Positions 1,784-4,805 of a DNA stretch of 64,000 bases are shown one piece after another (the first letter of the stretch is position 1; each line of letters starts with the position of its first letter). A model generated the notes under the pieces. The model was given only the letters and a program-made list of their open reading frames with translations. It was not told the DNA's origin and did not search any database. Origin of the DNA: Candidatus Villigracilis adiacens. GTDB lineage: Bacteria > Chloroflexota > Anaerolineae > Anaerolineales > Villigracilaceae. The DNA is taken from positions 91,819-155,818 of the forward strand of contig JADJBU010000008.1 of NCBI GenBank assembly GCA_016703605.1, written 5' to 3'. Both the position numbers and the translations under genes were made by a program.

Positions 1784-2257
1784 TTAATCCAGAAAGAGGT
1801 CTTTGATGAAAACGGTCTTTGGGCTTTGTTCCTTGACGATCAGATTCAGTGAGCCGCCCTCGTCGATTCCGTAGACATCCGGGTTGCCCGGCAGTTTGAT
1901 GCGCGACTGGTAATCTTCTCCGTTGACTTTGTAGTCCACCACGGCGTAATAGGAATAATTGCGCCTGCCCTGATTGTTACGCGACGAGGCGGTTTCGTCT
2001 ATGCGCGAGACCCTGCCTTTGATGGTGATTCCCTCGCGAAAAACGGACGTGGCAGCCATATATCGGTATGCCGTCCAAAGAATTCCCGCCAGGCTCAGCA
2101 ACCCGAGCAGATACGGCAGGAACGGGATGGAAATCGTCTCGCCCATGAAATAGGTCGCCAGTTGAAACAGCGGGGGAAAGAGCGCCATGGCAAGCGCGTT
2201 TTTCAGGACGGAGTCTCGCATGATCAGTTTGCCGATGGCGGGTGTTGGGTTTTCCAT
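1784..2257 (-). CDS. DUF3592-like membrane protein (paralog 1)
   Basis: 2 TM helices plus a beta-rich domain with YYAVVDYKVNGEDY; RBS-like AAGGA upstream; aligns with 2515-3003. Confidence 0.6.
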   Translation of the reverse strand: MENPTPAIGKLIMRDSVLKNALAMALFPPLFQLATYFMGETISIPFLPYLLGLLSLAGILWTAYRYMAATSVFREGITIKGRVSRIDETASSRNNQGRRNYSYYAVVDYKVNGEDYQSRIKLPGNPDVYGIDEGGSLNLIVKEQSPKTVFIKDLFLD

Positions 2258-2514: not shown

Positions 2515-3003
2515 TTAGAAACGGCTGAAATAGACGTTTTTGATCAGGACTTTTTGCGGCGAAGATTCTTTGTACATCAATTCGACTTCCTGCTTGTCGT
2601 GGATGTTATAGACGGAACCGGAATTGGGCATCCGAATTTGCTTTTTATAGGTCTCGCCGTTGACCACGTAACGGACATTGACGTAATACGAATAGCGTTT
2701 GGATTTTACGCGATTCCAATCGTCCTTTTCCTTCGTGACGTGATGATCGAAGCCTTCCACGATTCCCTTCACGGTGACGCCGTCGCGCAGGGTGGAGATG
2801 ACTGTGTTGTATCGAACTGCAAAGACAACCAGCCCCACCAAAGCGACCGGCAACGCCACGGCAAGGACGACCGGCGCTATGGCGGGGTCCGCATAGAATA
2901 CACCGCCCGAAAAAACGAGAGCGATAACCACCGCCTGTATTGCGTACGTGATCGTAAAATCTTTTCGATACAGGGCAACGACGTTCGGTATTTTGTTTTG
3001 CAT
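2515..3003 (-). CDS. DUF3592-like membrane protein (paralog 2)
   Basis: 2 TM helices plus YYVNVRYVVNGETY; aligns end to end with 1784-2257. Confidence 0.6.
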   Translation of the reverse strand: MQNKIPNVVALYRKDFTITYAIQAVVIALVFSGGVFYADPAIAPVVLAVALPVALVGLVVFAVRYNTVISTLRDGVTVKGIVEGFDHHVTKEKDDWNRVKSKRYSYYVNVRYVVNGETYKKQIRMPNSGSVYNIHDKQEVELMYKESSPQKVLIKNVYFSRF

Positions 3004-3006
3004 ATG

Positions 3007-4203
3007 TCACCTCGCGGAAAAAATTTTTATATCCCGGATTTGTTCCAGGACGATTGCCTCGGTGTTTTGCAGGTTTCTTCTTTTCAATTCTACCATCCCG
3101 CTTTGCAGTCCTTTTTCCCCAACCGTCATCCGCGCGGGGCAGCCGATCAGGTCCGCGTCGTTGAACTTGACCCCGGCGCGTTCGTCGCGGTCGTCGAACA
3201 AAACCGAAACGCCGTTGTTTTTCAACGCGTCATAAATTTCTTCGGCTTTGGCTTTCGTATCCATCGTCTTGCCCGGGACGTGCATCAGGTACAGGTCGAA
3301 GGGCGAGGCGGCGGGGGACAGGGTCAAGCCTTTGTCGTCGTGAAAAGTTTCGGCGAGGGCAAGCATCAGATTCGTAAAATCAATCTCATCGCCCGATGCG
3401 ATTTGAATCGCGGACAATATCTCGAGCGGCTTTCCACACTTCGCGCACGCATCCCCGGCTTTAACCTGCGCGAGGTCGGCGACCATGTCCGCCGCATAAT
3501 CGCGCGGAGTGTTCGTATTGAGCAGATGAAAGCCCGGCTCGTTCGCGCCTGCCGCGAGATTCTGCGATTTGGGGATGAGATCGTCCACGAGGATGAGCGC
3601 ATCCTTCAGCCCGATCGGCGACGCATACCCCGCCTCTGCCCCGGACTTTGAAATGGATTCTGCATCCGCAAGTTTTACCCCGCCGACGAGTTTTTCCAGT
3701 TTCGCTTCGCTCAACTGCATGTCGCCACGGAGGACGATGAAGACGAATTTATCATCCGTCTTGCGGACGTACATCAGCGCTTTGGCGGTTTTCTCTTTGG
3801 GGATGTTCAATAAATTCGCCAACGCCTCGATGGTGTTGCAATCCGGCGTGGACACTTTCTCCAGCGGAAGTTCCGCTTTGCGCGGCAGGGGAGTCTTTTT
3901 GAACTGCGCCAGGTCGCGCCGCTCCGTGTAGTGACCGAACGGGCAGATAGCGATTTCCACATCCCCGCTGGAGAGAGGAAAATAAATATCCTGCTCGTTG
4001 TAGCGGATCGGCAATGACAGGTCGAAGATGAAGGAATGGTCAGCCGCCGATTGTTTCAGCCGTTCGATCATCCGCTCGCCCAGCGGCAGGAGTTGATTCT
4101 CGCGGGTCAAATATCCCGCGCGGACGAGCCAGCCAAATCCCTGCGTGCGGGCGTTGTTCGGAAATTCGCGTTGAGTTTGGATTTCGAGTTCGGTGTATCT
4201 CAT
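3007..4203 (-). CDS. Prolyl-tRNA synthetase paralog: editing (INS/YbaK-like) plus anticodon-binding domains, catalytic core largely deleted
   Basis: ProRS-like N-terminus (LVRAGY..LLPLGERM), INS domain (KTAKAL, GYASPIG, AGANEPGFH) and C-terminal DDRDERAGVKFNDADLIG; class II motifs 2 and 3 are absent; 398 aa from the ATG at 4203. Confidence 0.85.
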   Translation of the reverse strand: MRYTELEIQTQREFPNNARTQGFGWLVRAGYLTRENQLLPLGERMIERLKQSAADHSFIFDLSLPIRYNEQDIYFPLSSGDVEIAICPFGHYTERRDLAQFKKTPLPRKAELPLEKVSTPDCNTIEALANLLNIPKEKTAKALMYVRKTDDKFVFIVLRGDMQLSEAKLEKLVGGVKLADAESISKSGAEAGYASPIGLKDALILVDDLIPKSQNLAAGANEPGFHLLNTNTPRDYAADMVADLAQVKAGDACAKCGKPLEILSAIQIASGDEIDFTNLMLALAETFHDDKGLTLSPAASPFDLYLMHVPGKTMDTKAKAEEIYDALKNNGVSVLFDDRDERAGVKFNDADLIGCPARMTVGEKGLQSGMVELKRRNLQNTEAIVLEQIRDIKIFSAR

Positions 4204-4286
4204 GGATGGAAAAGCCCCTTGCAAAAAGTTTATGGACTCCAACGACTCCCGTCGTTGGCTCTCAATCGTCGGAGACGTTCCGGGGG

Positions 4287-4805
4287 TTATGCCTTTTTCT
4301 TCCGCATCAATTTCTGCGTGGTCTCGACAGCCGGAGCCGGTTCCGGGATTTGGATCGGCGTCTGGGCAATGACCTCGGCTTGGGCGGCTTCCGAAGGCGT
4401 GGCTTCAGGAGCAGGCTCGAGATTAAGGTCGACCGATTCTTCCATCCGAATTTGACCGCGCAGGAACGCGCCTTCCTCGGTCACAAAGGCGGTTGTGACC
4501 ACGTCACCCCACACTCGCCCCGTCGCGCGGATTTCCAATTTTTGAGTGGTGATATTTCCGCGCACCGCGCCCGCCACAATGACGGTATTCGCGCGCACGT
4601 TCTGGCAGGTCACGCGTCCCGTCTCACCGACGACGAGCATCCCGCGCAGGGCAATCTCGCCTTCGAACGCGCCCTCGATGCGCACACCGCCCGACCCGTT
4701 GATCGAGCCGTGCCAGATCACGCCCGAGCCAAGCACGGACGTAATCCGCTCCACGGCTTGAACGGGTTGGGCTGTTTCTGCGGGTGTCGTGTTGCGTTTG
4801 AACAT
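4287..4805 (-). CDS. Bactofilin / polymer-forming cytoskeletal protein (CcmA family)
   Basis: ITSVLGSGVIWHGSI..VRIEGAFEGEI..VIVAGAVRGNI..LEIRATGRVWGDV..EEGAFLRG beta-helix signature. Confidence 0.9.
   Translation of the reverse strand: MFKRNTTPAETAQPVQAVERITSVLGSGVIWHGSINGSGGVRIEGAFEGEIALRGMLVVGETGRVTCQNVRANTVIVAGAVRGNITTQKLEIRATGRVWGDVVTTAFVTEEGAFLRGQIRMEESVDLNLEPAPEATPSEAAQAEVIAQTPIQIPEPAPAVETTQKLMRKKKA

Follow-up and report, generated by a model that had tools for sequence, protein, structure and literature searches.

Proline codons provide a textbook example of quality control by "triple-sieve" editing. In intact bacterial prolyl-tRNA synthetase (ProRS) the INS domain clears Ala-tRNA-Pro, and reading of G35/G36 by the anticodon-binding domain (ABD) avoids Ala-tRNA-Ala (PMC11295145); where a ProRS has no INS domain the free-standing protein ProXp-ala takes over editing, at least as outlined in PMC3973320. 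The members of the INS superfamily other than the INS domain of ProRS are all single-domain proteins (2024 review, PMC11295145), which agrees with a statement in the initial annotation of the gene described here that known free-standing INS proteins carry no ABD. This gene lies in a 64,000-nucleotide (nt) stretch of the genome of Candidatus Villigracilis adiacens (contig JADJBU010000008.1, positions 91,819 to 155,818; "the window" below is this whole stretch), and it encodes a 398-amino acid (aa) ProRS derivative that has the INS domain and the ABD and has lost the class II catalytic core. Judged from its sequence, the protein is likely a trans-acting, tRNA-Pro-specific Ala-tRNA-Pro deacylase that is unable to charge tRNA. 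No description of an INS plus ABD protein without the core was found in the literature searched.

The coding sequence is on the minus strand, where the ORF list and translation give one intact open reading frame (ORF) from an ATG at 4203 to a TGA at 3009-3007; AAGGGG sits 13 nt 5' of the ATG. The initial annotation had placed the gene at coordinates that do hold this single ORF, but had left the strand unstated; the 398 aa and the absence of a frameshift that it reported are borne out by translation. A TTG start at 4242, which would give 411 aa, was rejected, as the homologues all begin at an M(K/R)Y that matches 4203. Pfam matches the protein to PF04073 (tRNA_edit, residues 119-231, 70.2 bits against a gathering threshold of 25.5) and PF03129 (HGTP_anticodon, residues 314-389, 60 bits against a cut-off of 21), and to no tRNA-synt_2b or class II core family even at E<=1. 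The NCBIfam models of bacterial ProRS match it piecewise, over model positions 214-406 and 448-561, and score it at less than half of their cut-offs (NF006625, 230.1 against 558; TIGR00409, 147.5 against 306.7). The nearest solved structures are the ProRSs of S. aureus and E. faecalis. By both score and motifs the protein falls outside the proline--tRNA ligases, and it has their layout of INS plus C-terminal class IIa ABD; by score and catalytic residues it belongs to the INS/YbaK editing superfamily, and its ABD, core remnants and length of 398 aa set it apart from the single-domain, ~150-170 aa free-standing trans-editing factors. What it has in full are the attributes of a ThrRS-ed-like "editing half", namely an editing domain with an ABD, no synthetic site, and an editing-less partner synthetase (see below).

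Alignment of the 398-aa protein with E. coli ProS (from NC_000913) and 20 Chloroflexota relatives shows which parts have been removed. One deletion corresponds to E. coli residues ~70-182 plus ~199-209, that is, to the motif-1 strand (the second half of motif 1), a loop region and all of motif 2 (FRDEVRPRFGVMRSREF), and the other to residues ~415-444, the motif-3 strand and loop (GHIFQLG...GCYGIG). The gene and its retained segments are the following.

3007..4203, minus strand: whole coding sequence of the core-less ProRS derivative (INS plus ABD), from the ORF, domains, homologues and ratio of nonsynonymous to synonymous substitution rates (dN/dS)
4009..4203, minus strand: residues 1-65, ProRS N-terminal segment and motif-1 helix (QTQREFPNNART..LVRAGY..LPLGERMIERLK), aligned to E. 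coli ProS 1-~69
3850..4008, minus strand: residues 66-118, class II core-sheet remnant and linker into INS, holding C87, aligned to E. coli ~183-256
3934-3945, minus strand: C87-P-F-G90-H91
3511..3849, minus strand: residues 119-231, INS/YbaK-type editing domain (PF04073; lowest regional dN/dS)
3781..3783, minus strand: codon of Lys141, the editing lysine, strictly conserved and aligned to Lys279 of E. coli ProRS
3616..3630, minus strand: codons of G192-Y-A-S-P196, the GxxxP loop, aligned to E. coli G336-P340
3526..3528, minus strand: codon of His226, aligned to E. coli His369, which sets the specificity of the editing pocket
3349..3510, minus strand: residues 232-285, second core remnant with C253-x2-C256, a strand and half of the motif-3 helix with Asn278, aligned to E. 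coli ~375-414 and 445-463
3436-3447, minus strand: C253-x2-C256
3010..3348, minus strand: residues 286-398, class IIa ABD (PF03129; TIGR00409 positions 448-561)

The motif-1 strand, including its Pro, is deleted just past residues 1-65, and the motif-3 deletion falls after about residue 271; the motif-3 Arg position is occupied by Asn278, and by Asn in 72/77 members of a 77-sequence family alignment. All three class II motifs (in the case of motif 1, its strand) are gone in 28/28 truncated proteins examined, and the sequence predicts that the 398-aa protein forms no prolyl-adenylate and does not charge tRNA-Pro. In the 77-sequence alignment the N-terminal segment, with modelled helices at 21-29 and 40-52, has invariant Y3, Q9, R12, P15, N17, R19, G22, R28, G30 and R34, and the ABD holds an invariant DDRxERAGVKFNDxDxxGxP. 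The initial annotation had found motifs 2 and 3 missing and the INS domain and ABD intact, and on all three counts the alignment to E. coli ProS, the Pfam matches (for the ABD, the 60 bits of PF03129) and the retention of every editing residue support it. The strings it had quoted are all present, LLPLGERMIERLK at residues 38-50, YFPLSSGDVEIAIC at 74-87, KTAKAL (with Lys141), GYASP (192-196) and PGFH (with His226), but its remark that the first of these jumps almost directly to the second was too strong, for 23 residues (51-73) lie between them. We note that Chloroflexota P-type (bacterial-type) ProRSs and their relics have a CxxC...CxxC pair, one on each side of INS, that E. coli ProS does not have, and the arrangement is reminiscent of a zinc knuckle. 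All 77 relatives have C87, C253 and C256, and 71/77 keep the first CxxC; the window's own subclade (6/77) has CPxGH instead of CxxCG, in the 398-aa protein CPFGH, and the His one position later may substitute for the lost Cys.

The editing site has been retained in its entirety. The 28 truncated proteins are all identical at the equivalents of E. coli T257, I263, L266, T277, K279, G336, D350 and H369, eight positions of the truncated form that are invariant across the 77-sequence alignment; their counterparts in the 398-aa protein include I125, L128, T139, K141, G192-P196, D207 and H226. The Pro of the GxxxP loop (E. coli P340) is kept in 26/28, and the editing Lys in 28/28 truncated proteins, 7/7 degenerate paralogues (see below) and 61/61 other ProRSs. 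The Ala-pocket residues of the truncated form (equivalents of E. coli I263, L266, T277, K279 and H369) match those of canonical Chloroflexota ProRS. A dN/dS check had been suggested in the initial annotation, and in pairwise Nei-Gojobori comparisons of unsaturated pairs the ~400-aa form has an overall dN/dS of 0.17-0.21; it is under purifying selection. The regional values are lowest for INS (0.07-0.11), followed by 0.17-0.23 for the ABD, 0.23-0.31 for the N-terminal segment and 0.13-0.38 for the two core remnants. AlphaFold2, run on the 77-sequence alignment, gives a model with a mean predicted local distance difference test score (pLDDT) of 88.9 and a predicted template modelling score (pTM) of 0.83. 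The core remnants are modelled at pLDDT 92-96 (residues 66-118, with strands 72-76, 82-87 and 92-95, at 92-95; residues 232-285 at 95-96). The top Foldseek match in the PDB is a whole-chain match to E. faecalis ProRS 2J3L (E 1.8e-33, query-normalised TM score 0.75-0.77), indicating that the mutual arrangement of INS and ABD in intact ProRS is preserved in the model.

In the genome that contains the window (4.44 Mb, 99.45% complete) no protein passes the cut-off for a bacterial-type ProRS, and no orphan class II ProRS-like core came up in the searches. The sole real ProRS of this genome is of the archaeal/eukaryote type (E-type; C12:43451-44863, TIGR00408 573.6 bits against a cut-off of 437), which has no INS, a C-terminal Cys cluster and a terminal Tyr; the guess in the initial annotation that an editing-less ProRS of this type would be found elsewhere in the genome was thus correct. 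The three tRNA-Pro genes (UGG, GGG and CGG) are all of bacterial type, with C1:G72 and A73, and the charging of P-type tRNA-Pro by an E-type enzyme is also the situation of B. thuringiensis ProRS2 (PMC11229370). Elsewhere the genome encodes four free-standing tRNA_edit proteins. The first resembles YbaK (TIGR00011, 135.9 bits) and the second ProXp-x (PDB 2CX5, 125 bits); the other two (G000 C2:76410-76958 and C26:112782-113264) are distant from YbaK, ProXp-x and ProXp-ala, with best PDB matches of 39-48 bits. None of the four is ProXp-ala-like (5VXB <=22.9 bits). Among 46 Anaerolineae genomes that were re-examined, 43 have an E-type ProRS, 11 of which also have a P-type enzyme above cut-off, several have sub-threshold P-type paralogues, and 8 have no P-type relative of any kind.

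The truncated form is widespread in the window's own family. Among 5.8 billion proteins searched, >120 are near-full-length homologues of 390-407 aa (64-92% identity); each has both Pfam domains, and their sources are metagenome-assembled genomes of Anaerolineales. Scanning a single genome for each species added 17 loci that encode the ~400-aa form at 52-80% identity. When the short form was counted as a full-length match within a 400-500-codon frame in a sample of 401 Chloroflexota genomes, the window's GTDB family had it in 23/25 genomes and the other groups in 0/376. A denser sample of that family has it in 126/201 genomes and 22/36 genera, with single-contig assemblies among the 126; 19 of the 201 genomes gave no match and are mostly fragmented or incomplete assemblies. 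The architecture is therefore not unique to this assembly; had it been unique, this would by the terms of the initial annotation have refuted its reading. In a search of 1.84 billion representative proteins, the ~400-aa form accounts for about ten clusters at 50% identity, and there are many relatives of 490-560 aa. That search also returned a few other short tRNA_edit plus ABD proteins of uncertain completeness: six 50%-identity clusters, P0170 (506 aa), P0142, P0192, P0193, P0225 and P0242, have tRNA_edit and HGTP_anticodon and no significant core match. P0170 aligns to the whole 398-aa protein after an extra ~85-aa N-terminal extension, and one such cluster also has a 566-aa member, so some of these may be mis-called fragments. 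The database names of the ~400-aa homologues vary among 'proline--tRNA ligase', 'YbaK/EbsC family', 'anticodon-binding domain-containing' and 'hypothetical', and as a result a genome may be annotated with a second ProRS that is not there.

Forms intermediate between an intact ProRS and the relic are also present. Full-length-like paralogues with motifs 2 and 3 eroded and the INS residues intact coexist with E-type ProRS at G130, G346, G210, G121, L057, L065 and L084, and two shorter forms, of 513 aa in genus g241 and of 492 aa in genus g221, occur within the window's family and combine partial deletions with degenerate motifs. One genome of g241 (G424) has a ~400-aa relic (C191:95-1276) as well as the 513-aa intermediate (C3:868-1521, locus L135), which may mean that the gene is truly present twice or that the metagenome bin is contaminated. 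A maximum-likelihood tree was built on the 395 columns present in >=92% of rows, so that the deleted segments do not drive its topology (support is given below as ultrafast bootstrap / SH-aLRT). In it the truncated proteins form one clade (100/98) that is sister to the 492-aa form (100/98); the 513-aa form is next outward from the 492-aa node (96/79), and then a comb of motif-eroded full-length paralogues. This nesting beside motif-eroded P-type paralogues is in keeping with the proposal in the initial annotation that the gene was derived from a dead synthetase. The near-canonical P-type ProRSs of genera g7 and g223 are placed in a separate "normal" clade. In g7 the P-type proS adjoins the E-type proS on the same strand (G226:C20:122503-125807 and G175:C19:53987-57710, loci L018 and L019), and the g7 full-length enzyme was considered as the closest kin of the truncated clade and rejected on its position in the tree; that position implies either that the relic lineage predates the family or that a canonical copy was regained by g7. 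Some contribution of long-branch attraction to the grouping of truncated with degenerate proteins has to be allowed for at the deeper nodes, but this order holds in the 395-column tree, whose key nodes have 96-100% bootstrap support, and the 492-aa form already has the 4-residue deletion in the N-terminal segment that is characteristic of the family. The simplest reading of the series is that the catalytic motifs were lost first and the useless core was then trimmed stepwise, while INS, the ABD and a minimal scaffold stayed under selection.

Trans-editing of Ala-tRNA-Pro is proposed because the protein has INS and ABD in their native geometry, the sole ProRS of the genome has no INS, and no ProXp-ala-like protein accompanies it; we infer the deacylase activity, alanine as its substrate and its dependence on the anticodon. 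The lineage would have come to rely on an E-type ProRS without an editing domain, and its resident P-type paralogue would have lost the class II catalytic motifs and then been cut stepwise to ~400 aa. The small folded core remnant would hold INS and the ABD in the relative position that they have in intact ProRS. Binding of the tRNA-Pro anticodon (G35/G36) by the ABD would let the acceptor end reach the INS pocket (Lys141, the GYASP loop, Asp207, His226, Ile125, Leu128 and Thr139), which would hydrolyse Ala-tRNA-Pro presumed to be released by the E-type ProRS and spare Pro-tRNA-Pro; the relic would neither activate proline nor charge tRNA.

Several observations weigh against this reading, and the chief one comes from related genomes. 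No tRNA_edit domain is detected genome-wide in the E-type-only genomes G202 and G184 (same order, genus g11; ~2 Mb, 97-98% complete), which seem to manage without any known tRNA-Pro editing factor, and other E-type-only Anaerolineae carry only YbaK-like or ProXp-x-like tRNA_edit proteins, with no ProXp-ala-like protein among the E-type-only genomes checked for complementarity. These genomes argue mildly that editing of Ala-tRNA-Pro is dispensable in the class Anaerolineae. The window's genome also encodes the ProXp-x-like protein, a type that has weak Ala-tRNA-Pro activity (PMC11295145). Furthermore, one Cys of the conserved Cys4 knuckle is replaced in the window's subclade, and half of the motif-1 dimer interface is deleted, which bears on the oligomeric state and on tRNA docking. 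The suggestion in the initial annotation that the relic serves an editing-less ProRS accordingly stands as far as the presence of an E-type ProRS without INS is concerned, but is weakened a little by the sister lineages that lack tRNA_edit. A further step, possible but rather doubtful, would be to regard the two proteins as a "split" ProRS of the Anaerolineae, in which the E-type enzyme charges and the P-type relic is a dedicated anticodon-reading proofreader that possibly resamples tRNA-Pro or receives it directly.

Other explanations of the gene were weighed against the same evidence. We give practically no credence to gene decay or to an error of assembly: descent by large internal deletions from a gene that had ceded its main function would fit decay, but the frame is intact, the same architecture recurs in 126/201 family genomes (single-contig assemblies included), the proteins form a monophyletic clade at 47-92% identity, dN/dS is ~0.2 and the fold prediction is confident, and conservation, dN/dS and fold rule out both pseudogene and misassembly. 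A continuing part in aminoacylation, for example with a partner that supplies motifs 2 and 3 in trans, is highly improbable; the protein keeps the motif-1 helix and some of the core sheet, but the ATP- and proline-binding motifs are all physically gone, the genome searches turned up no orphan ProRS-like core, and a complete E-type ProRS is present.

Two explanations that leave the protein a role on tRNA-Pro deserve more weight, and both are unlikely. The protein could be an anticodon-guided tRNA-Pro deacylase for a residue other than Ala (Cys, Ser/Thr, 2-aminobutyrate or another analogue) or have a broader range than INS has in cis; INS superfamily members share fold and active-site features and yet differ in amino-acid specificity (PMC11295145), the stem branch of the truncated clade is long (0.73), and E-type-only relatives live without any Ala-editing factor. 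Against such a shift in substrate, the Ala-pocket residues are unchanged in 28/28 truncated proteins and identical to those of canonical Chloroflexota ProRS, and Cys and 2-aminobutyrate are already provided for in this genome by YbaK-like and ProXp-x-like proteins. It is likewise improbable that the protein is a tRNA-Pro binder selected for a non-hydrolytic role, such as hand-off or sequestering of tRNA-Pro, an accessory subunit on the E-type ProRS, or a charging sensor. Other synthetase relics have turned non-catalytic, HisZ among them (PMC5388404), the PolG2 accessory subunit is among the fold matches, and the constraint on the N-terminal segment and core remnants (dN/dS 0.13-0.38) is more than a plain tether might need. 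Invariant catalytic residues in the most constrained domain, INS, are nevertheless hard to explain without catalysis; moreover, the gene has no conserved association with the E-type proS, which is located on another contig, and the neighbouring genes (bactofilin, FabI, membrane proteins) suggest no such pathway. Hydrolysis of Ala-tRNA-Pro in trans is thus the reading that we prefer.

The gene order is conserved in relatives as FabI, bactofilin, relic, small membrane protein, bPH_5 and DUF92, and these conserved neighbours suggest no function for the relic. Its immediate neighbours in the window are the following.

4287..4805, minus strand: upstream bactofilin gene, 172 aa (ORF; PF04519 on the neighbour in L117 and L118)
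2515..3003, minus strand: downstream membrane-protein ORF, 162 aa (ORF list; junction TGA-CAT-ATG)

The bactofilin gene, a conserved neighbour, lies 83 nt before the relic start codon, and a short inverted repeat, CCAACGACGGGAGTCGTTGG, is present between the two at 4234-4253 (minus strand). The membrane-protein ORF starts 3 nt past the relic stop codon, and a 157-aa gene has the same place in relative L118; the 398-aa gene and this ORF are probably co-transcribed. ORFs 2515-3003 and 1784-2257 (both minus strand) are paralogous, 157-162 aa long with a hydrophobic N-terminal half, and have the common C-terminal pattern ..YSYY..V.Y.VNGE.Y...I..P....VY.I......L..KE.SP..V.IK..

If the "split" ProRS reading is right, the 398-aa protein would be the first INS superfamily member with more than one domain and with guidance by the anticodon, and it would point to a general route for the origin of free-standing editing proteins; the graded series (intact, motif-eroded, 513, 492 and ~400 aa) would be the record of a redundant synthetase becoming a trans-editing factor. 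An INS hydrolase joined to the anticodon reader of a synthetase, without the charging site, would be a new source of tRNA specificity in trans-editing and would give a minimal scaffold on which the cooperation of INS and ABD could be studied free of a synthetic site. The graded relatives also give an unusually clear view of the fate of a housekeeping synthetase after its displacement by a foreign isozyme.

Among known systems, the bacterial P-type ProRS (E. coli ProS, E. faecalis 2J3L, S. aureus 5ZNJ) is the direct homologue and ancestor, alike in N-terminal segment, INS residues, ABD and their arrangement. The 398-aa protein differs from it in the absence of ~170 core residues (motif 1 strand, motifs 2 and 3), so that it cannot activate or charge proline and any editing has to be done in trans, on tRNA charged by another enzyme. 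The full-length "dead" Chloroflexota P-type paralogues, of which no description was found in the literature searched, belong to the same lineage and likewise combine eroded motifs 2 and 3 with intact INS and ABD alongside an E-type ProRS; they retain a ~560-600-aa core as scaffold, whereas the window's family has deleted the core, and the 513- and 492-aa forms bridge the two. The truncated Streptomyces ProRSx (~200 aa) is also a ProRS paralogue shortened by deletion, but it has only the ABD, no editing domain and a sporadic distribution, and was interpreted by its authors as partial deletion or inactivation (PMC10404621). With ProXp-ala, YbaK, ProXp-x and ProXp-ST1/2 the 398-aa protein shares the tRNA_edit fold, the Lys, the GxxxP loop and (presumably) action in trans, and with ProXp-ala also the presumed substrate, Ala-tRNA-Pro. 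These free-standing factors are single-domain proteins of ~150-170 aa that recognise the acceptor stem or depend on ProRS (PMC11295145), whereas the 398-aa protein has an ABD of its own and is nearer in sequence to the INS of ProRS than to any free-standing family.

The closest functional analogue is crenarchaeal ThrRS-ed, the Ser-tRNA(Thr) hydrolase that forms a split pair with ThrRS-cat, in which an editing domain and an ABD similarly stand beside an editing-less synthetase of the same specificity (PMC11295145). The two differ in amino acid (Thr, not Pro), in editing fold and in domain of life, their similarity is only via the ABD (NF011500, 13.2 bits against a cut-off of 362), and the partners here are of different types, an E-type enzyme and a P-type relic, rather than two halves of one gene. 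The remaining details of the ThrRS-ed logic are reportedly those given by Korencic et al. in 2004. With these differences, the E-type ProRS and the 398-aa relic would be the bacterial, proline-system counterpart to the archaeal ThrRS-cat/ThrRS-ed split.

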